Virus record (IMG/VR): IMGVR_UViG_3300021964_000070
Location: 1-59,538 of that record
DNA length: 59,538 nt
DNA from: a virus
Lineage: Duplodnaviria > Caudoviricetes
Strand: one strand, 5' to 3'
Shown: positions 540-24,273 of the stretch, piece by piece
Layout of the letters: each line of letters starts with the position of its first letter
How positions within the stretch are numbered: position 1 is the stretch's first letter
Program-made: the position numbers and the translations under genes
Notes under the pieces: model-generated
The model's input: the letters and a program-made list of their open reading frames with translations, nothing else
What the model was told of the DNA's origin: nothing
Database searches by the model: none

Positions 540-749
540 TTAGCTAAGAGCCGCACCCACAGCAGTTACCCAAGCGGACCCATCGCTAACAACAATGCAA
601 TATTCATCGTCAGCGGCACCGTTATCGCTAATAACGTATATAGTCCCGGCTGGAACGCCAGAGGCTGAAGGGAGGTCTGCGGTTAATACAACGGGCGCAA
701 TAAACCCCGCATCTGATTTTACCGGACCAGAAAAAGTAGAACGAGCCAT
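540..749 (-). CDS. Small putative capsid-associated/head fibre protein
   Basis: MARSTFSGPVKS N-terminus, AGGAG RBS, immediately after the major capsid gene. Confidence 0.6.
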   Translation of the reverse strand: MARSTFSGPVKSDAGFIAPVVLTADLPSASGVPAGTIYVISDNGAADDEYCIVVSDGSAWVTAVGAALS

Positions 750-754
750 GTCAA

Positions 755-800
755 TCTCCTGTCGTGGCTAGTGTCAGCCGCCCCATGCGGCTGTCAGGGA
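755..800 (-). promoter_or_regulatory. Structured 5' leader (hairpin CAGCCGC-ATGGG-GCGGCTG) upstream of 540..749
   Basis: Inverted repeat directly visible; flanking CCTG could pair with the CAGG of the RBS. Confidence 0.4.
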
Positions 801-865: not shown

Positions 866-1774
866 TTATGCGCCCTCTGTACCGAACACACAACGCCAGT
901 CGGAAACACCGAAGCTGTAGCGCTCACGAGCCTTAAAGCGCATATTTCCGGTGTCAAAATCACCTTCCATAGCGGTCTTAATAGGCGCACGGTTGAAATA
1001 TTTGAAACCGTTTGGAGCGTCTGTCTTAATGAAGAACGCATCAGTATCTACCAAGAAGTGGTTTACAACCGCCCCTTCTGGAAGCATACCCATGTTCTTC
1101 ATAGCGTTTGCATCGTTGTCTGCTGTGCCCGGACGTAGGTTTGAGTTAAGCACCCGCTCCGCAATAAATTGCGACTCTTTCGGGATAATCAACTTTGTGC
1201 CACGAACAGCAATCTTCAGACCACGTTCATCTGTCAAGCCAGCAATGTCGATCAGCATCTGTTCGAGAGAAGTCTCGTTCAGGTCTGCGGCAACAGTCAG
1301 CTTGTTACGCTGGTTACCTGACAGTGATGGGTGAGCAGTTGAACAAAGTGCAGCGCCGTCACCAATTGCAGAAGCACCGGCTGTGAACGCATTGTTCAAA
1401 ATAGACGCAGCTTTAATCTGCTTTGTCTGAGCCATTGAACGAGCCAGAGCCTTGGTGTAACGAGATGCCAGACGGTCATACAGGTTATCTTCGATAGCTT
1501 CTTCAGTGATTGAGAAAGCCAGAGCGATTGTTTCATGTGTGTACCGTGCAGTGTATGTCTCTTGAGCATCGTCAAAGTTGATGGCAGTGCCTTCACCTTT
1601 AACAGGAGCTGTTGAGAAGCCACCAAGCATCACCTCTTCTTCAAAGGCTCTATCTGAGCTTTCTTCATCGAAGATTTCAGCGTGTTCATTTTCGTAGCGA
1701 TTGTACTCAAGACCGAACAAAGCATTTAGGCCGGGCTCTAGCTCTTTCGCTAATTGTGCGCGAGAAATAGCCAT
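866..1774 (-). CDS. Major capsid protein (HK97 fold, Mu gpT-like family)
   Basis: 302 aa; MAISRAQLAKELEPGL...KARERYSFGVSDWR motifs typical of this phage group; downstream of scaffold; strong RBS. Confidence 0.9.
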   Translation of the reverse strand: MAISRAQLAKELEPGLNALFGLEYNRYENEHAEIFDEESSDRAFEEEVMLGGFSTAPVKGEGTAINFDDAQETYTARYTHETIALAFSITEEAIEDNLYDRLASRYTKALARSMAQTKQIKAASILNNAFTAGASAIGDGAALCSTAHPSLSGNQRNKLTVAADLNETSLEQMLIDIAGLTDERGLKIAVRGTKLIIPKESQFIAERVLNSNLRPGTADNDANAMKNMGMLPEGAVVNHFLVDTDAFFIKTDAPNGFKYFNRAPIKTAMEGDFDTGNMRFKARERYSFGVSDWRCVFGTEGA

Positions 1775-12335: not shown

Positions 12336-12806
12336 TTAAATGTCGATTGTTAGGGTCGCACCGGCCAGAACTTCCTTAACAATGGACTCGACCGCTTCGC
12401 GCTGGGCGTCTTCCCTGTCTTCGTTATCCGGCAGGCGTTCGTCTATCATGTCTGAAATCTCATATTCGTAATCATGAATAGAGAAATCATTTTCCAGAAC
12501 ATCGCTGGCGGCTTTTTGCGCGGCGCTCTCGGCTATCGCTTCGACACTGTCCCTGATTACTGACATAATACCGGCGGCCAGTCGTTCGTTGTCTTCGCGG
12601 CGGCTGTCAATAATAGCCTGCTTATCCCGCCGCAATTCGTCCAGCTCTTTTTCCTGCTGTTCGATTTTATCGGCGGCCGCCTCAATATCATAAGCGGTGG
12701 AAGATAGCCCAGCCTCGCAGGTATCGGCGGCAAGGCGGCGCAAATATTGCGCGCCGGTTTCTGGGGTAAAGATTTGATTTTGTGTTTGTGTGTTTACGTT
12801 TTCCAT
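12336..12806 (-). CDS. Acidic coiled-coil early protein
   Basis: True start likely MENVNTQ (12806) behind AAACTACGGAG leader; the longer track ORF crosses a promoter and terminator. Confidence 0.65.
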   Translation of the reverse strand: MENVNTQTQNQIFTPETGAQYLRRLAADTCEAGLSSTAYDIEAAADKIEQQEKELDELRRDKQAIIDSRREDNERLAAGIMSVIRDSVEAIAESAAQKAASDVLENDFSIHDYEYEISDMIDERLPDNEDREDAQREAVESIVKEVLAGATLTIDI

Positions 12807-12863
12807 TGGTTCAATTCTCCGTAGTTTAGAACCGGCGGCCAGCCTGTCCGGCCGCCTGATATA

Positions 12864-13088: not shown

Positions 13089-13790
13089 CTATTCCTTCCC
13101 TATGTCACCGGCTACATGATGCCGGAGAATTGAACCGGTCGGCAGGGTTTTGACAAAAGCCCGCAACCGTTCGCCGTCCGTCTGGGCTTGTTCCTGCTTG
13201 GCGGTGTGTTGCCAGTGAATATTTACATTGCCGCCGTCTGCATAACACCCGCCGCGCTGGCCGGTGTTTATTTTGTTCTTGCCCGCGCCATGTGCTGTAA
13301 AGGTGATAATATAGTCGCGGTCGGCTCTGGCGCATAATGGCAGGCCGTCCCCGCAATTATTGCACGTCACCGCGCTGTTATATTCGGCGGGGCATCTGAC
13401 AAACTTAACATCCTGAACGGCCGACCATTTGCCATTCGCGAAAAAGTCCTGCGGAACGGTTGTCACTGTCGGCACGTCATGCACCGCCTGATAAGCGATA
13501 AAGGGACTATCCGCGCTGTAGTTGATTACAGTTTTACCGGCGGCCAGTTTATGCATCCAATAAAACGGTTCAAAATGTGAATATGTAAACGACACGCCGC
13601 GACGCGGTACGGCGTCGGCCAGTATGTCCAGATATTCAAAGTCGATTTGGTCACCGGCGCAACCCCGCCCGCTGGCGTTCAAGTTACAATCGGCGGGGCA
13701 AGTCCCGAACTTGTCACCATTGCCCGCCCTATATGTGACGGCGCAACCGGCCGTCTTATTTGCTTGTGAAATTGCTGTAGTTTTCAACAT
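13089..13790 (-). CDS. Cys-rich early protein (Gp88/DUF7227-like, possibly Fe-S or Zn binding)
   Basis: TCPxxC, FTYSH, CPA...TCxxC...LC, FTAHG, GCYA, RHHVAGD motifs; start MLKTTA behind TACGGGA leader. Confidence 0.6.
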   Translation of the reverse strand: MLKTTAISQANKTAGCAVTYRAGNGDKFGTCPADCNLNASGRGCAGDQIDFEYLDILADAVPRRGVSFTYSHFEPFYWMHKLAAGKTVINYSADSPFIAYQAVHDVPTVTTVPQDFFANGKWSAVQDVKFVRCPAEYNSAVTCNNCGDGLPLCARADRDYIITFTAHGAGKNKINTGQRGGCYADGGNVNIHWQHTAKQEQAQTDGERLRAFVKTLPTGSILRHHVAGDIGKE

Positions 13791-13839
13791 AGTTTTATTT
13801 CCCGTAAAAGTTATGCGATTTGTCTTATATAGCAAAAAC

Positions 13840-15118: not shown

Positions 15119-15212
15119 TTTAAATGCTCCCGTAGTTAATCGGACAGGATTGTCCATAAAAGCGGTTGTCTCATAAAATCTGATATAATGCAAGTAATTT
15201 TTTTAAAAAGTT

Positions 15213-15921: not shown

Positions 15922-16115
15922 GACTTCACCTCTTCAACATCCTGCGTCCAGAACTCACGGTGAACATGATTCGGGGCATACTGTCTTGGATAATCCGTCC
16001 CGCCCATTTCATCGGCAAGGGCATAAGCCGCCGCCTCTGCCTCTTCGGCGTTAACCGCGTTGACCTCAACAATCACGCCCTCATCTAGGCATATTGCTAC
16101 TCTATATTTTGGCAT
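15918..16115 (-). CDS. Hypothetical early protein
   Basis: 65 aa; preceded by AAACTACGGGAG leader. Confidence 0.65.
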   Translation of the reverse strand: MPKYRVAICLDEGVIVEVNAVNAEEAEAAAYALADEMGGTDYPRQYAPNHVHREFWTQDVEEVKS

Positions 16116-16161
16116 CGTTTTAACTCCCGTAGTTTGTTAACGATGACCCATATATATGGGA

Positions 16162-16626
16162 TTATGTCGGACAGGTCAAGTCAAAAATGGTTTCCCATGC
16201 AAAAGGCTGGATGCATCTAAACAGGGGTTCTACTTCGGCCATGCCCTGCATCTTTAGTTCTATCGCCGCGCTGGCAGGATAAAGCAAACATTCTGCCGGT
16301 TCTGTCGGCTTGGTCTGTTTCTTTATTAAAATCCAACATGACCCATGTTGATGCCTAGTTAACCATGACACCTGAGACGGCAATAAATTTACTCGATTGC
16401 TGGTGGTAAATTTCAATTCAATAAAATGAAAGTCCCCGCGCTCGTCACAAATAAGTAAGTCCGGTATTCCTGCGCCAGCTAAGTTTTCAATCCTCGTCAA
16501 AGTCAGCTTCTTGCGCTTCCTCTGCACCGCTTCCTTTATCTGCTTGTAAAAGCCTGCCTCGCGCTTTGTCGCGATTACCGGCGTTGTCTTTTTCTTCTGG
16601 GGTGATGTCAATGGTGATTGGGGCAT
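16162..16626 (-). CDS. VRR-NUC/Holliday-junction-resolvase-like PD-(D/E)xK nuclease (start uncertain)
   Basis: RIEN...GIPDL...FIELK...SQVSW motifs; overlaps TerS 3' end. Confidence 0.8.
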   Translation of the reverse strand: MPQSPLTSPQKKKTTPVIATKREAGFYKQIKEAVQRKRKKLTLTRIENLAGAGIPDLLICDERGDFHFIELKFTTSNRVNLLPSQVSWLTRHQHGSCWILIKKQTKPTEPAECLLYPASAAIELKMQGMAEVEPLFRCIQPFAWETIFDLTCPT

Positions 16627-17119
16627 AGCTTTGTTTGATTTCCTCTAAAGCTTTCAAGACTTCTTCCTTACTCATGCTGTCAATAGACCCGTGACGGATT
16701 TCGGATTTATTAACATAAATGTCACCTTGCGCTTGGCCGCGCCGGTATTCCGCTTGAACAGCGGCAGAGTAAGCTCCGTTTTGCAGAGCTACGTCTCGAA
16801 TATTCTGTAGATCTCGAATATGCCTCTGGTAAGTAATTCCGTATTTTTGGTCAAGCTCTTTACGATAAGAGTTGATAGCGGCAACAACATGAGGCGACAC
16901 ATGAGGGTTGGTTAGTTCATAAGCCCGTGTGTGGGCAGAACTGGCAGAATAACCCGCATTAATCGCCGCGTCTCTCAAAGTTATCTGCCCGTCCTTGCTG
17001 ACCAGTTCCTTAACAAACAATTCCTGCTTGCGTGTCAGGGGCTGTTCAACACTGGCAGGCGGCCTGCCGCGCCCGTCTCTTGGTTTGCCGGTTACTTTTC
17101 CGGCCGCTTTTCTAGCCAT
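16487..17119 (-). CDS. terS: Terminase small subunit
   Basis: LTRKQELFV...AAINAGYS..SA...AYEL HTH pattern of Terminase_2-type small subunits. Confidence 0.75.
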   Translation of the reverse strand: MARKAAGKVTGKPRDGRGRPPASVEQPLTRKQELFVKELVSKDGQITLRDAAINAGYSASSAHTRAYELTNPHVSPHVVAAINSYRKELDQKYGITYQRHIRDLQNIRDVALQNGAYSAAVQAEYRRGQAQGDIYVNKSEIRHGSIDSMSKEEVLKALEEIKQSYAPITIDITPEEKDNAGNRDKARGRLLQADKGSGAEEAQEADFDED

Positions 17120-17431: not shown

Positions 17432-17809
17432 TTATTTTTGGGCTTCCTGCCACCGTTGGTGGGACTTTTGGAACTGCGCCATAGAGTCTTTCATAAACTC
17501 TTGATGCGTGAGCCGCGAGTCTTTAGACGGGGACATTGATTTACTGGTCATTTTAAAGAACCCGATAGGTGCTATCTTATCAGCCGTTTCCGGCATCCAA
17601 GACAGGCCGCCCATTTCCGACACATTTGTTGTATCGTCTGGCGCATACCAGACTTGGACAAATTGTGGGTAACTACCGCTTGCCTGCTTGCAGGCGTTTC
17701 GAGCGGCGGTCACTGGGTCGGTGGCCTTTGCCCACCCGCCGTACCAACCGGCGGTAGAGGCAATGAAAGTAAATCCGTTGGGCAGAACCCAATCTTTAGA
17801 ATTAGCCAT
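17432..17809 (-). CDS. Hypothetical early protein
   Basis: Start MANSKDW behind AACTACGGGAG leader. Confidence 0.65.
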   Translation of the reverse strand: MANSKDWVLPNGFTFIASTAGWYGGWAKATDPVTAARNACKQASGSYPQFVQVWYAPDDTTNVSEMGGLSWMPETADKIAPIGFFKMTSKSMSPSKDSRLTHQEFMKDSMAQFQKSHQRWQEAQK

Positions 17810-17892
17810 AGCTAAATCTCCCGTAGTTAACAGTTTCAAACAACGCTACCCAAAATGGGTATTAGGTCACCCTTAACAGATGCCTCTCTTAT

Positions 17893-19438: not shown

Positions 19439-19833
19439 ATTAACTGCTCCCGTCCAAGTGACATATCGGTGACCCAGTTCTGCATATCTTCGGTGGGTTT
19501 ACATTCATAGACCATGCACACCGGTTCTTTATTTTCATGATATATAGCGAGGTCGAACATACGTTCGCCGATTTGGACGCCAATCCAGAAGGTTTCTTCA
19601 TCGGTGGGGTCGGTGAAGCCTTCCTCGATCATTTTTGGTTTAGCGTGATTATCATAGAAAGCCATCAGGTAGCCGCGCTCATAATCGGAAAGCTCAAGGT
19701 CATCATTGTCTTCATCTACATAAAAGCAGATAACAACCACGCCTTCATCGCGCTGGACTTCATGGTAAGCACCAATCCCGAATGTTTGTTCGAGCGTATC
19801 TAATATTTCGCTAGATGATTTAAACTTTGTCAT
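19435..19833 (-). CDS. Acidic hypothetical early protein
   Basis: 132 aa behind a perfect TCAACTACGGGAG leader. Confidence 0.65.
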   Translation of the reverse strand: MTKFKSSSEILDTLEQTFGIGAYHEVQRDEGVVVICFYVDEDNDDLELSDYERGYLMAFYDNHAKPKMIEEGFTDPTDEETFWIGVQIGERMFDLAIYHENKEPVCMVYECKPTEDMQNWVTDMSLGREQLI

Positions 19834-19834
19834 A

Positions 19835-20086
19835 TCATTCTCCCGTAGTTGATATAAGATTTATCCTATACATATAACACAAGTAAGAACGTGTCAAGCA
19901 AAAAGGGCGACATCTCTGCCGCCCCTTTCTGGAATATATCTTTTTAGACTTTATGACCCGAAGCTTGAACCGCGGGTCGCGGATTTTGATTGGGTTTCTT
20001 TTCTTCATTTTCCGTAACGACAGGGCATTTATATTTCTTATTGCGCCGCCGTCTTTGGCGTGACCAATCGAAATATCTAATGCCAA
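19835..20086 (-). CDS. ArfA-like alternative ribosome-rescue factor candidate, probably made from nonstop mRNA
   Basis: RDPRFKLRVIKSKKIYSRKGR aligns by eye with ArfA [24 protein letters not shown]; intrinsic terminator inside the ORF. Confidence 0.5.
   Translation of the reverse strand: MALDISIGHAKDGGAIRNINALSLRKMKKRNPIKIRDPRFKLRVIKSKKIYSRKGRQRCRPFCLTRSYLCYMYRINLISTTGE
19869..19897 (-). promoter_or_regulatory. Sigma70-type promoter with downstream palindromic operator
   Basis: TTGACA-17-TATGTA; TATAAGAT-TT-ATCCTATA at 19853-70. Confidence 0.75.
19900..19928 (-). terminator. Intrinsic terminator inside the ArfA-like ORF
   Basis: AAGGGGCGGCA-GAGA-TGTCGCCCTTTTT. Confidence 0.75.
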
Positions 20087-20343
20087 GTGCCTTCCTCTGC
20101 TTCATACTCAGCGGCAATCCGCGCTCCTGTTGCCATGCAGGATGATATCATACCAGTTGCGGTAGCGGCATCCGGAGAGGACACAATTAAACGGAAGATA
20201 AGCGCGGTTAGCATACCGCCCAACACGGCTCCCGCATTTAGGTCTTCATCCATCATTTCATCCAACAGATCGTTTATTTCATCGCGGGCTCTGTTGAAAT
20301 CTTCTTCCCCGTCAATAATCATCCGCGTTTTATCCTTTCCCAT
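20077..20343 (-). CDS. Hypothetical protein
   Basis: 88 aa; overlaps neighbouring genes in the operon. Confidence 0.55.
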   Translation of the reverse strand: MGKDKTRMIIDGEEDFNRARDEINDLLDEMMDEDLNAGAVLGGMLTALIFRLIVSSPDAATATGMISSCMATGARIAAEYEAEEGTWH

Positions 20344-20510
20344 GAGGCTAATATTTTTTTAGCCCGCTCAACAGCTTCAGGGCTGTGTTGCCCTTCGGCG
20401 GCTATACGGGATGCATATAACTGTACAGACATATTAACATCCCCCAGAGCTTCAGTCCAATCTATCTTCCTAGACAGGCTGTAGATTTCATCTTTATTGG
20501 ATCTCATCAT
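20319..20510 (-). CDS. Hypothetical protein
   Basis: Likely start (M)MRSNKDE with GGGGGTG RBS. Confidence 0.55.
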   Translation of the reverse strand: MMRSNKDEIYSLSRKIDWTEALGDVNMSVQLYASRIAAEGQHSPEAVERAKKILASWERIKRG

Positions 20511-20646
20511 CACCCCCGTATTCTGGATCATCCGTCCCGAAGGCCAGAAGTATAACCCCTTCTGCGCCGCTTTCAACTTCATCAAAAGGCAAGCCGACTT
20601 GTGCCAGCTTTTCTTTCAATTCTTCAACTGTGAATATGTTTTTCAT
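20494..20646 (-). CDS. Small acidic early protein (not in ORF track)
   Basis: MKNIFTVEELKEKLAQVGLPFDEVESGAEGVILLAFGTDDPEYGGDDEIQ behind AATTACGGGAG leader. Confidence 0.7.
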   Translation of the reverse strand: MKNIFTVEELKEKLAQVGLPFDEVESGAEGVILLAFGTDDPEYGGDDEIQ

Positions 20647-20676
20647 ATTCGTCTCCCGTAATTAGAACTATTATCC

Positions 20677-20705
20677 TACATACTCCCATACATTGGGTAT
20701 GTCAA
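20677..20705 (-). promoter_or_regulatory. Sigma70-type promoter with operator repeats
   Basis: TTGACA-17-TATGTA; TATGGGAG-TA-TGTAGGAT. Confidence 0.75.
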
Positions 20706-20706
20706 C

Positions 20707-20781
20707 AAAAAAAGAAACCCCCAGAAAAACTTCTGAGGGCTTCTCAACTACGGGAAATGTAAAGCTTGGGGGCTCTACGGC
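20707..20781 (-). ncRNA. Candidate trans-acting sRNA antisense to the early-gene RBS motif
   Basis: Promoter TTGTAT-17-TATAAT; 5' hairpin GTAGAGC/GCTTTAC; single-stranded ATTTCCCGTAGTTG; 14-bp terminator stem plus T7. Confidence 0.7.
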
Positions 20782-20785
20782 TCTC

Positions 20786-20814
20786 ATTATATAAGATAGT
20801 GTGGGAATATACAA
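20786..20814 (-). promoter_or_regulatory. Promoter of the sRNA
   Basis: TTGTAT-attcccacactatctta-TATAAT; contains operator octamers. Confidence 0.75.
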
Positions 20815-20881
20815 GTCTTTTTTACAAAAAAGTTTGACATAACATTTTGTAAAAGTTAGCTTTATTGCAGGGGGATATGAT

Positions 20882-21313
20882 TTGTTACCAGCCTTTGAAG
20901 CGGGTAAATTAGGTGAGCACATCTGCATGGTTCGGCTGTTGAAGCTGGGCGTTTCTTGTGAGCTCGTAAACTTAGACACTATCGACATCGTTGCGTCTGT
21001 CGATACTAAAATCATTCGCATCCAAGTCAAGTCCAGCATATTAAAAGGCCACAGACAAAAGCGCAGTCTAGGGTATCAATTTAATACCAGCTATTCCGGC
21101 AAGAAACTTCCACTCAACAAAGAGCATTGCGACATTGTTGCGCTTGTCGCTACAAATTGTGAACGGGTTATCTTCATGCCCGTAGAACATTTAAAGGGGC
21201 AGACGACTAAACGTCTTCCGCCCCAAAAGTTTGATGATGGTGATTTTTTTGAAAAGGGATCTTTAGAAGCCCGCTCATGGGATAAGTGCTTAACTTTCTT
21301 GTTTAGCACATGA
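20882..21313 (+). CDS. PD-(D/E)xK endonuclease (homing-endonuclease-like), opposite strand
   Basis: GKLGE...IDIV...IRIQVKS...CDIVALV motifs. Confidence 0.7.
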   Translation: MLPAFEAGKLGEHICMVRLLKLGVSCELVNLDTIDIVASVDTKIIRIQVKSSILKGHRQKRSLGYQFNTSYSGKKLPLNKEHCDIVALVATNCERVIFMPVEHLKGQTTKRLPPQKFDDGDFFEKGSLEARSWDKCLTFLFST

Positions 21314-21475
21314 GGCGGTTTCGCCTTGACAGCATTCAGATATGTAAAGCTTACAGACAGAGCATTGATAATGACCGTGAACTTCGACAGGCGGAAGGTT
21401 ACATAAACATCGCGGACATTGATTATTGTCCAGAGCCTTTTGTATTTTTCCCGCATCGCCGAAAAATTCATTCAT
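21290..21475 (-). CDS. Cys-rich zinc-finger-like protein
   Basis: CPRC...HGHYQCSVC...ECCQG. Confidence 0.65.
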   Translation of the reverse strand: MNEFFGDAGKIQKALDNNQCPRCLCNLPPVEVHGHYQCSVCKLYISECCQGETASCAKQES

Positions 21476-21623
21476 CTTCTATTTCCCCTGTGCCGTCACA
21501 CTTTTCACACGTCATCACGCGGCCTACTAATTCGCCCCCGCGCCAAGCCATCGGGTCTGGAACGGCGACTTCATACTCACATTCTCCCTCACCGCCACAT
21601 TCTGGACAAGTTTTATTTAACAA
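21468..21623 (-). CDS. DnaJ-type zinc-finger micro-protein (not in ORF track)
   Basis: TTG start; LNKTCPECGGEGECEYEVAVPDPMAWRGGELVGRVMTCEKCDGTGEIEDE contains two CxxCxGxG motifs. Confidence 0.7.
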   Translation of the reverse strand: MLNKTCPECGGEGECEYEVAVPDPMAWRGGELVGRVMTCEKCDGTGEIEDE

Positions 21624-22005
21624 GGGTCAACTGCGCCTTCTGCTTATAATAATGCTTTTTATAATAAGAGCGGGTCTTGTCCCGATTATTTTTTGTCCAG
21701 TTGCGCTTAGAACATAACTTAGAACAGAACATTCGCTTCTGACCCGTGAGCCGCGTTCCGCATTCCTTGCAGTTTTTGCGGCCATTCTTGCGCTTAATTT
21801 CGGGGGTAAACTTTACATTTACACCTTCATCAGGCTCGAACTTTATTTCAGGCTCTGGCTGGGCTTCTTCACGAATGTCCTTTAAGTCCTGCTCAACCAG
21901 AATAGCAAAAGCAACCACCCGCCGGAGGCTAGGGGGTGCGCTTGCCGGATCAAAATCATCGGATAAAACCGCGATTGAAGTCAAAAGTTTATCTAGATAA
22001 TTCAT
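21613..22005 (-). CDS. Hypothetical protein with C-terminal Zn-ribbon
   Basis: CKECG...FCSKLC; ACACGGGAG leader. Confidence 0.65.
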   Translation of the reverse strand: MNYLDKLLTSIAVLSDDFDPASAPPSLRRVVAFAILVEQDLKDIREEAQPEPEIKFEPDEGVNVKFTPEIKRKNGRKNCKECGTRLTGQKRMFCSKLCSKRNWTKNNRDKTRSYYKKHYYKQKAQLTLVK

Positions 22006-22105
22006 TTTTTACTCCCGTGTAAGATTATCTTAGAGTTATCCCATACCATATATAAAAAAATATATCAACCTTTTTTATAGGCTGGGTTTTATGCGAACGC
22101 ATAAA

Positions 22106-22380: not shown

Positions 22381-24273
22381 TCATTCTGCTTCGCCCCAGT
22401 TAGGGCCGATTTCAATGTCACATTTACTGGGGATTTCCAGCGGCACGGCTGTCTCCATAATTTGTGAAATGTTCACAGCATCTTCACGGTCTTTCACAGA
22501 CATAGCTATCTCATCATGTATTTGCACAAGAGGGATGCGGCCTTGTTCGTATATGTTCACCATTGCCTGCTTTGTCATATCTGCGGCGGATGCTTGGATG
22601 AGCCGGTTCAGGGCTTTGTAAGTATATGCCCGCTTTAGTCTGGTGGTTTCGCCGTATTCTTTTACGGCATCTTGGTAAGGCAGAGCCTTGTTCATGGCAA
22701 ATGTATCGGGCTCCCAGAGGTCAAACCTACATTTGCGTCCTAAGATAGAGCGGACTGAGCCGCTTGCGCCGCGATCATTGAGCCGGTTTTGAACACCCGT
22801 CATCAAGCCTTTAACAAACGGGACTCGATCATGATACTGATTAACTAGCGATTTGGCTTCATCAACGGCAATGTCTAACTGGTCGGATAATTTGTTCACG
22901 CCCATGCCATACATCATACCTAGATTGATGGTCTTGGCCTGCTTGCGCGGGATGTTAGCCATCTCTGCCACCATTGTATGGAAGTCCATATTTGGGTCAT
23001 TGCGGTAGGCATCCACAAATTCTTCTACACCCGCCATCTGTATGCCTTTAGCCTTACCATATACATACGCATAGTGAACCAAGATGCGTGGTTCCTGTTG
23101 TGAGAAGTCAATTGCGGCCCACTGCTCCCCTTCTTCCGGAAGGAACAGGCTACGGATCATTGGCCCTAATACAGGGTCGCGGGCCGGGATCTGTTGGAGG
23201 TTAGGGTTGTTCATGGATATTCGCCCAGAAACCGTGCCGCCATCATCAGACCTGATTTGGTTGATGTGCGAGTGGATACGGCCGTCACTGTGGCAGTGCT
23301 TCATTATGGTGTTAATAAATGTCCCGCTGGTCTTGTTGAGGTTACGGGCCTTAACAATTAACTGCGCCAATTCATGTGGGTGGTCGATTAAAAAAGATTT
23401 CGTGAAGGACGGCGCATTTTTTTCTGTGCGGGGATAATCAATACTGAGCTTATCAAAAGCTTGAGCTATGGACTTTGCCGCCCAGAGCTCGACATCCATA
23501 CCGGCAACACGTTTAATTTGCTTCTTTATTTCTTTCTCTTCTTTTAGAAGATGATCTCTAGTGCGCTCAACACGGTCTTGATCCACACGGACGCCGCGCC
23601 AAGTCATGTCGATTAGACAGGGCAACAGCTTGAGCTCAAGCTCTGCTATGGGCCAGAGGTCTTCTTTTGTTAGCTGGGTAGATAAGTAACCCCATAGCTG
23701 GAGTGTAATCTCTGCGTCATTCTGGGCATACGGTCCAACAAACATGGCGGGCATCTGCCACATATCCGCTTTTGGGTCGAGGCCAAAGGCGCGGGCAGCT
23801 TCCTGTAATGTTTTCTCTGTTTTGATTTTACCTAAATGGTCGTAACACAGAGTGTTAAGGCTGTAGCTGAAACGGTTTTCGTCAAGCAGAGCGGCGATTA
23901 ACATAGTGTCAATAATGCGGCCGTTGATGGTGAAGCCCATCCGGCGTATCCAGCCCGCGTCATATTGAGCATTATGCATAATTTTATCAGCAGGGCACTC
24001 AAACACTTTCTTGAGCCACTTATTTACAATGCGCTCGTCTAGATTACCGCCGCCCTTATGCCGAACAGGTATATATCCAGCCCAGTCTTCTACGGCAATG
24101 GCGTAGCCTACCACTTCGCCATCACCAGTGGTCCAACCCGGCCCCAATGTTTTGATATTGGGGTCGCGGGTTTCAACATCTATAGCTATTCTTTTTGCAT
24201 CAAAGATGTCGGGCAGTTCAGCCGGTGGAACCCATTCGCTCTTCGGGGCAAACATCGTCATTTGCAGTGACAT
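22381..24273 (-). CDS. polA: DNA polymerase family A with 3'-5' exonuclease
   Basis: AIDVET, HNAQYD exonuclease motifs; SGRISMNNPNLQQIP; DFSQQEPR; KTINLGMMYGMG; QIHDE. Confidence 0.95.
   Translation of the reverse strand: MSLQMTMFAPKSEWVPPAELPDIFDAKRIAIDVETRDPNIKTLGPGWTTGDGEVVGYAIAVEDWAGYIPVRHKGGGNLDERIVNKWLKKVFECPADKIMHNAQYDAGWIRRMGFTINGRIIDTMLIAALLDENRFSYSLNTLCYDHLGKIKTEKTLQEAARAFGLDPKADMWQMPAMFVGPYAQNDAEITLQLWGYLSTQLTKEDLWPIAELELKLLPCLIDMTWRGVRVDQDRVERTRDHLLKEEKEIKKQIKRVAGMDVELWAAKSIAQAFDKLSIDYPRTEKNAPSFTKSFLIDHPHELAQLIVKARNLNKTSGTFINTIMKHCHSDGRIHSHINQIRSDDGGTVSGRISMNNPNLQQIPARDPVLGPMIRSLFLPEEGEQWAAIDFSQQEPRILVHYAYVYGKAKGIQMAGVEEFVDAYRNDPNMDFHTMVAEMANIPRKQAKTINLGMMYGMGVNKLSDQLDIAVDEAKSLVNQYHDRVPFVKGLMTGVQNRLNDRGASGSVRSILGRKCRFDLWEPDTFAMNKALPYQDAVKEYGETTRLKRAYTYKALNRLIQASAADMTKQAMVNIYEQGRIPLVQIHDEIAMSVKDREDAVNISQIMETAVPLEIPSKCDIEIGPNWGEAE

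Follow-up and report, generated by a model that had tools for sequence, protein, structure and literature searches.

Lytic phages that lack an RNA polymerase of their own must still order the expression of their genes, and for the abundant marine HTVC023P-like podoviruses it is not known how this is done. The locus described here raises the question of whether a single small RNA (sRNA) takes part. It lies on the minus strand of a tailed-phage genome, a whole IMG/VR virus record of 59,538 bp with a completeness rating of 100%, which we call the window. An original prediction held that a short unit at this locus encodes an sRNA antisense to a leader sequence that is shared by the ribosome-binding sites of several gene cassettes. 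Our favoured reading of the sequence, which we consider moderately probable, is that a trans-acting antisense sRNA occludes the Shine-Dalgarno (SD) site of several phage operons.

The anatomy claimed for the unit, namely a promoter, a 5′ hairpin, an unpaired linker and a terminator with a U7 run, was confirmed by the sequence itself, by RNAfold and by a terminator scan. All of its parts are on the minus strand. The promoter (20786..20814) consists of the −35 element TTGTAT (20814-20809), a 17-nucleotide (nt) spacer and the −10 element TATAAT (20791-20786). Our promoter scan omitted this combination because the −35 element agrees at only 3/6 positions; relatives have TTG...−10 elements at an equal distance from the unit. 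The predicted transcript (20705..20779) is about 70-75 nt long, with a 5′ end inferred from the −10 element and a 3′ end from the U-tract, and scores 76.8 bits with R1, a covariance model introduced below. Starting 7 nt after the −10 element, RNAfold places a 7-bp 5′ hairpin, GUAGAGC-CCCCAA-GCUUUAC (20759..20778). It is followed by the single-stranded linker AUUUCCCGUAGUU, also written ATTTCCCGTAGTT(G), at 20746..20758. We refer to this linker as the seed, and its core is CCCGUAGU (20754-20747). The linker is unpaired in both the minimum free energy (MFE) and the centroid structures, with a mean probability of being unpaired of 0.97. The Rho-independent terminator (20707..20745) has a 15-bp stem, a 4-nt loop and U7; the hairpin occupies 20745-20712 and the T7 run 20713-20707, and the terminator scan also gives 15 pairs. 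As a whole, the unit folds with an MFE of −30.4 kcal/mol (z = −4.67), which 0/200 shuffles equal, and RNAfold predicts one dominant fold. The sequence TTGACA (20700..20705), which is the −35 element of the next promoter, stands 1 nt past the U-tract. This abutment of a terminator and a TTGACA promoter is kept in classes 1, B, C and D of the related units.

The statement that the unit contains no open reading frame (ORF) needs to be qualified. A 122-amino-acid (aa) ORF (21039..20671, minus strand) formally crosses it, but in the 50 units examined no conserved reading frame of consistent length or phase spans the unit, and 2 of the 50 loci have no open frame on either strand. ORF length and phase were used here instead of a test for stop-free frames over 85 nt, as such frames are common by chance.

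The reverse complement of the linker, ACTACGGGAG, has four exact copies in the window. All are on the minus strand, and each is 6-8 nt before an ATG. Only 0.07 copies of this 10-mer are expected, and 0/100 shuffles reach four. Variants of the sequence occur ahead of four further first cistrons, between the DNA polymerase and terminase genes. All eight leader copies listed in the original prediction are present at the coordinates given there, each on the minus strand. The leader TCAACTACGGGAG (19840..19852), 6 nt before the ATG at 19833, is a 12-nt perfect complement to UCCCGUAGUUGA, and its duplex with the seed (−23.2 kcal/mol) is the best among 85 translation initiation regions. Also 6 nt before its ATG, AATTACGGGAG (20653..20663) precedes a 50-aa ORF starting at 20646, with one G-U pair in the seed pairing. 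The leader TAACTACGGGAG is found twice, in both cases 8 nt before an ATG: at 17818..17829 it precedes a 125-aa gene (ATG 17809), and at 15127..15138 a 408-aa gene (ATG 15118; DUF932 / phrog_1362). We regard the cistron at 17809 as internal, because no promoter was found near its leader. The same 8-nt spacing separates AAACTACGGGAG (16124..16135) from the ATG at 16115 (65 aa). The leader TTTACGGGAAAT (13797..13808), located 6 nt before the ATG at 13790 (233 aa, DUF7227), pairs with the 5′ linker part AUUUCCCGUA, while AAACTACGGAG (12817..12827), 10 nt before the ATG at 12806 (156 aa), is a variant that is one G shorter. Contiguous complementarity is limited to 6 nt in the weak leader ACACGGGAG (22012..22020), which is separated by 6 nt from the ATG of a 130-aa gene (ATG 22005; weak HNH-like match).

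These leaders are concentrated in one region and near starts, as the original prediction had anticipated. Using gene starts from crude gene calls made in this analysis, we found at least 8 nt of contiguous linker complement within 25 nt upstream of the start in 6/19 genes at 12.3-22.3 kb, compared with 0/65 elsewhere (Fisher p = 6.7e-5). When the 85 translation initiation regions are ranked by their duplex energy with the seed (median −8.9 kcal/mol), the top six (−23.2 to −14.7 kcal/mol) are all located at 12.3-19.9 kb. Other genes of the window have AGGAG/GGAGG-type ribosome-binding sites.

Three of the cassette promoters (22050-22012, 20685-20653 and 19880-19840, minus strand) have a common module from the −10 element to the SD, TAT(A/G)GGATAA.TCT.A.AT...ACGGGAG. 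The leaders thus belong to promoter-leader modules that recur along the genome, and these modules could have a further use in the exchange of cassettes. The initiation region of the polymerase gene reads GUAAUGGAGAAU in the window and AUUACGGAGG in the related locus L065 (L065:7333-7365).

The unit is conserved in related, uncultured marine phages. Our set of relatives consists of 80 IMG/VR loci from a polymerase search (76-91% identity), or 81 sequences with the window. The loci differ in length, and most of those without a detected unit end less than 2.3 kb past the polymerase. A blastn search with the intergenic region recovered the unit in 18 loci. A detector of seed, hairpin and T-run recovered it in 50/81 sequences (window counted), to which a variant unit in L072 is added. 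The covariance model R1, built from 13 class-1 variants, matches the window and 37 loci at E ≤0.012 on the sense strand and adds L057, L058 and L065. The search among related phages that was proposed along with the original prediction thus finds the unit in at least 54/81 sequences, always downstream of the polymerase (0.4-2.3 kb where both coordinates were compared). In L060, L062 and L066, the core is present in other architectures. Two separate sRNA-like units with a CCGUGUAGU core occur in one phage, at L072:8686 and L072:16618. The more distant phages HTVC023P (first 20.9 kb) and DSL-LC04 (29.9 kb) have no leader or seed motif in context. An R1 match in HTVC023P (23.3 bits, E 0.013) was rejected; it marks an ordinary, seedless terminator ahead of the large terminase gene.

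Little of the unit is constant apart from the seed. Three unrelated kinds of 5′ hairpin occur, and some units have none and carry the seed at their extreme 5′ end; terminator stems and loops vary too. The sequence CCGTA is invariant in 36/36 distinct variants, and the CCGUAG-type core is always within the transcribed unit, usually directly 5′ of the terminator. Such a pattern, with an exposed core that stays constant while its surroundings vary, is typical of base-pairing sRNAs. In 22/36 variants, the core is wholly unpaired in the MFE structure. The scaffolds of the 36 variants cannot be aligned, so RNAalifold on their MAFFT alignment yielded only a meaningless structure of 4 pairs; pairing was instead counted on the class-1 alignment with its stated structure. 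Over the 13 class-1 variants, 96.5% of cells are paired and 5 pairs have changed on both sides (helix 1, the 5′ hairpin: 93.4% and 2 pairs; helix 2, the terminator: 98.2% and 3 pairs). When partners are slid by 1-3 columns as a control, pairing is only 28-60%. A C-rich loop recurs among the units, as CCCCAA in the class-1 5′ hairpin (20766-20771 in the window) and as GGUU(U)GCCCCCG in terminator loops, both in class 2 and in L074/L077. This loop might act as an additional element for pairing or for protein binding.

Seed and leader types change together between clades. Across relatives, UUCCCGUAGU seeds occur with ACUACGGGAG leaders, CUCCGUAGU with ACUACGGAG, and CUCCGUGUAGU with ACACGGAGA. 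We defined a strict leader as A[CT]TACGG(G)AG at a distance of 3-13 nt upstream of a start codon with an ORF behind it. Sequences with CCC seeds have 29 GGGAG-type and 3 GGAG-type strict leaders, and those with CUCC seeds have 0 and 13, respectively. The only locus with the seed CCCGUAAU, L011, has the leader ATTACGGGAG, and L072, whose seed is CUCCGUGUAGU, has the matching leaders ACACGGAGA and ACGGAGAAC. The first two of these pairings are also seen gene by gene: DUF932, DUF7227 and the 125-aa protein all have orthologues in both clades (48-77% aa identity), each with its own clade's leader type. For the 125-aa protein, this is ACTACGGGAG in L024 and ACTACGGAG in L054. In L054 and L061, ACTACGGAG is likewise the leader of the orthologues of DUF932 (77% aa identity) and DUF7227. 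Therefore, the covariation does not merely reflect different genes in different phages.

Predicted energies agree with these pairings in part. In a seed-swap matrix, 7/7 class-1 sequences fit CCC-type seeds better, and L054, L061 and L072 prefer their own seed type by about 3 kcal/mol; L050 and L081 are without such a preference. None of 200 shuffled seeds reaches the observed top-3 energy in 10 of the 22 sequences with at least 3 kb downstream, and the signal is marginal or absent in the rest. In the total of 874 kb, 41/45 sense 9-mers are directly before a start codon with an ORF, and 49/53 antisense 9-mers are inside an sRNA unit. Leaders kept without the antisense unit, a pattern that would have counted against the original prediction, occur at no locus with adequate sequence. 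The loci L063, L064, L079 and L080, with at least 3.3 kb downstream and without the unit, have no strict leader either.

In the mechanism that we propose, the host's sigma-70 RNA polymerase probably makes a non-coding RNA of about 70-75 nt from its own promoter, ended by its own terminator. The exposed linker (core CCCGUAGU) would pair with ACUACGGGAG, which is 5′ of the SD and overlaps it, at six to eight cistrons or more between the DNA polymerase and large terminase genes. On the messages, the pairing site would be ACUACGGGA(G), and the sRNA is assumed to be stable. The predicted duplex lies over the first 3-4 SD bases (all of GGAG in class 2). Because of this coverage, a block of 30S loading is the most likely effect, with mRNA decay possibly next. 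In this way, a single RNA would reduce or silence the expression of several phage operons at once. To judge by their sequence (e.g., AAAUCUUAUAUCAACUACGGGAGAAUGAUAUG), the leaders seem to be short and free of structure, which argues against activation by the opening of an inhibitory fold. The properties expected of a trans-encoded base-pairing sRNA are found: an independent unit without a conserved ORF, an accessible conserved seed, multi-target complementarity beyond chance, and covariation. From them we infer production of the RNA, pairing in vivo and repression. A timer is conceivable, in which a stable sRNA builds up against unstable mRNAs, but the sequence itself gives no sign of one. We dropped another reading, of ...ACTACGGGAG as a T7-type promoter, because the position of the motif is fixed to start codons and not to transcription units. 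In addition, no phage RNA polymerase was found among the 28 window proteins scanned, and HTVC027P encodes none according to passages of a report on that phage (PMC12753301).

The core idea of the original prediction, one sRNA antisense to a common ribosome-binding-site leader, is backed by the conserved unit, the leaders of relatives, the covariation and the strand logic. Its interpretation as a whole is supported only in part, and a number of observations weigh against the antisense reading. The original prediction took the tagged genes to be early genes for host take-over, but they are not demonstrably so: the cassette region also holds the small terminase subunit, and the two tagged genes that encode DUF932 and DUF7227 are not obviously early. 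Nothing in the sequence explains a delay, because the sRNA and the cassettes alike have promoters of the sigma-70 type. A shuffled-seed control at the loose cutoff of −12 kcal/mol was not discriminating (10 observed; shuffled mean 7.7, maximum 24). There are few independent covariation events, since the CCC and CUCC seeds fall in two major clades of the polymerase tree. The core is partly paired in the MFE structure of 14/36 variants, whose 5′ ends were chosen arbitrarily, including 5 of class B. Moreover, none of the runs recorded as RNA contains the sRNA stretch. In four runs of one study, a fraction of 0.42-0.44 of the words is present as contigs, and contigs cannot reveal RNA ends.

Some subclades and individual loci also fit poorly. 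Class B, with the seed (C/A)UCCCGUAGUUA and 82% polymerase identity, comprises 13 core loci, or 15 if L074 and L077 are grouped in. It keeps the sRNA but has only the degenerate leaders AACTACAGGAGA, AACTATAGGAGA and AACTATGGGAGT. Therefore, phage leaders cannot be the whole story. Among ten sequences grouped as class B in the seed-swap analysis (core loci together with L053 and L077), only L077 prefers its own seed, and the observed top-3 energy is reached by a fraction of the 200 shuffled seeds that lies between 0 (L053) and 0.155 (L042), with 0.065 for L033. For L081, a class-2 sequence, this fraction is 0.37, which is not significant. No significant complementary translation initiation region was found in the available sequence of L060, L062, L066, L065, L057 and L058. 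The class-2 units (L047, L048, L054, L061 and L071; e.g., L054:12377-12480) have an interrupted U-tract; no more than about 10 nt farther on come an SD and an ATG that starts a conserved gene. Their RNA may derive from or double as a 5′ untranslated region (5′-UTR), because there is no promoter between the terminator and the SD-ATG. The layout suggests a read-through or 5′-UTR-derived sRNA.

In five class-B loci (L032, L035, L038, L041 and L043), a leader-like 5′ segment, ACUGAGGGA, is predicted to pair with the seed, whose mean probability of being unpaired is 0.20-0.21. This pairing could self-mask the seed if the segment is transcribed.

The matching classes of seeds and leaders bring to mind c4, an antisense RNA of the phages P1 and P7. 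A c4-like RNA for immunity or exclusion would act on relatives of the same seed class that co-infect or superinfect the cell, by silencing their leader-tagged operons, and the classes would be specificity groups. The existence of at least three co-diversified seed/leader classes, each with a better fit to its own partners than to those of other classes, is in line with this idea and mirrors c4, in which RNA-target complementarity underlies P1/P7 heteroimmunity, as summarized in part of one article (PMC12197685). Nevertheless, we think this explanation unlikely. The phage's own leaders would be hit equally, a scan of 28 window proteins revealed neither an integrase nor a repressor, and phages of the HTVC023P type are described as lytic in passages of two reports (PMC12753301, PMC11066056). 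A purely cis-acting role, in which the unit is the 5′ leader or attenuator of the downstream operon only and has no trans function, could account for the class-2 units, given their interrupted U-tract and the missing promoter before the SD-ATG. There is also a weak Rfam likeness within 20600-20900 to the PyrR attenuator (27 bits, threshold 54) and the His leader (23.1 bits, threshold 49). These matches, like those to microRNAs, are below gathering thresholds, and we rejected them as terminator-like noise. However, the fold is a single dominant one with no evident alternative antiterminator pairing, and a TTGACA promoter comes right after the terminator in the window and in classes 1, B, C and D. 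Since it would also leave complementary, seed-covarying leaders kilobases away unexplained, a cis-only function seems very unlikely. Still less probable, in our judgement, is that a phage or host protein binds the motif as double-stranded DNA, in either orientation, and that complementarity to the sRNA is a by-product. A changed protein specificity would also make all sites co-vary, and several sites are 20-40 bp downstream of −10 elements. By contrast, the sense copies are fixed 3-13 nt before start codons (41/45), even where no promoter is nearby (17829-17818), and 49/53 inverted copies stand between the variable 5′ part and the terminator of a small promoter-bearing unit. Variants that are compatible with G-U pairing exist as well, such as ATTACGGGAG with CCCGUAGU, and point to RNA.

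The main conserved target might instead be a host RNA, either mRNA or rRNA, with phage leaders as secondary targets or sponges. The CCGUAG core is kept in subclades in which no strong phage leaders were found, as this would predict. Furthermore, the leader 9-mer CTACGGGAG (tag CUACGGGAG) is identical to nt 342-350 of E. coli K-12 16S rRNA (rrsH, L084), and this site is the best 16S partner of the class 1, class B and L060 seeds, which are antisense to it. We take these nucleotides to be the 3′ half of helix 14, the universal EUB338 probe site, which is presumably near-universal in bacteria. On the other hand, class 2 and 3 seeds are not antisense to the 16S site and track their own leaders, and class-B sequence reaches only 7-10 kb downstream of the sRNA. 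On balance, a host RNA as the main target is quite unlikely, although a little less so than a cis-only function. In a specific form of this idea, the seed would be an anti-rRNA sequence that pairs with nascent or mature host 16S rRNA and adds to ribosome loss, while the leaders would be rRNA mimics for buffering or timing. Ribosome-deprived “zombie” cells are reported, in a passage of one study, for HTVC027P, a distantly related pelagiphage (PMC11066056). However, the 20.9 kb of HTVC023P examined has no such unit and a single CCGTAGT outside the context of a unit, and the match is a post-hoc 9-mer coincidence of roughly 1 in 100. Since class 2 and 3 seeds depart from the 16S complement yet follow their own leaders, we attach very little credence to the 16S match and treat it as a low-probability lead.

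If the antisense reading is right, the closest described system, by analogy, is the c4 antisense RNA of P1/P7 (immI region; Rfam family C4). The c4 RNA is processed out of a transcript that also contains its target, and the phage in which it controls a single operon is temperate. It is a trans-acting phage RNA that pairs around a ribosome-binding site and blocks translation, according to part of a report (PMC12197685, citing Citron and Schuster 1990). The RNA predicted here would resemble it as a trans-acting phage small RNA with short complementarity to ribosome-binding sites, whose specificity comes from a few bases that covary with the target. Unlike c4, the window unit has its own promoter and terminator, and the Rfam C4 model gives no match within 20600-20900 at E up to 10. 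In addition, the predicted targets are at least six to eight cistrons in separate units, in a phage group that is reported as lytic in a passage of one article (PMC12753301). Co-transcription with the target in a temperate immunity context was not found, although the class-2 layout comes nearer to it.

Among bacterial sRNAs, RybB and OmrA/B are also short primary transcripts with a single-stranded seed that is more conserved than the scaffold and a Rho-independent terminator with a U-tail, and they act on several mRNAs at or near the SD. Here, by contrast, a phage of lytic type would encode the sRNA and direct it against its own operons, and the targets have a near-identical 10-nt tag in place of sites that are only loosely alike. 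In phage T4, the endoribonuclease RegB and the translational repressor RegA inactivate early mRNAs together, marking them through the SD region (GGAG). The outcome would be alike, but the T4 effectors are proteins and the effector proposed here is an RNA. The lambda OOP and P22 sar RNAs are cis-antisense phage RNAs, as stated in part of a report (PMC12197685). They are likewise small phage RNAs that repress phage genes by pairing, which is predicted here, but they overlap a single target on the opposite strand, whereas the window unit is on the same strand as its putative targets, 0.1-8 kb away. We found no description of such a system in the literature on HTVC023P, on phage-encoded and marine phage small RNAs, or on Shine-Dalgarno antisense. 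Promoters, terminators and small RNAs all go unmentioned in the main text of PMC9599517. If true, the proposed mechanism would add a post-transcriptional layer of control and a self-encoded, tag-defined regulon, of a kind for which the cases known so far are mainly immunity RNAs of temperate phages with a single target each. In the natural seed/leader classes, orthogonal pairs of RNA repressor and tag would be available ready-made. Given the covariation, the hypothesis is directly testable in E. coli reporters without culturing the host.

Judged by its sequence, the phage of the window is a distant relative of HTVC023P-type pelagiphages. Its family-A DNA polymerase (24273..22381, minus strand) has 48-55% identity to the polymerases of 023Pt_psg01, DSL-LC04, HTVC023P and HTVC027P. 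The gene order is as in these phages: polymerase, many small genes, small terminase subunit, further small genes and large terminase subunit. The gene for the small terminase subunit (17119..16487, minus strand) is inside the cassette region. For HTVC027P, passages of one report describe use of the host polymerase throughout infection, temporal classes that form a mosaic, and early genes of unknown function (PMC12753301).

Two plus-strand genes at 20927-21717 (128 and 135 aa), in the opposite orientation, are located between the HNH-like gene and the sRNA promoter, and the 128-aa gene has a match to phrog_5018 (function unknown; 8e-10). The pair looks like an inserted module. A blastn search in distant mode with 20300-21400 gave zero matches among GenBank phages. 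Over the whole window, the sole Rfam match at gathering scores is the Mu-gpT-DE RNA motif at 747-799 (minus strand; 76.2 bits, E 5e-16). It is located just 3′ of a 302-aa ORF (1774..866), which, from its position, is a candidate major capsid gene.

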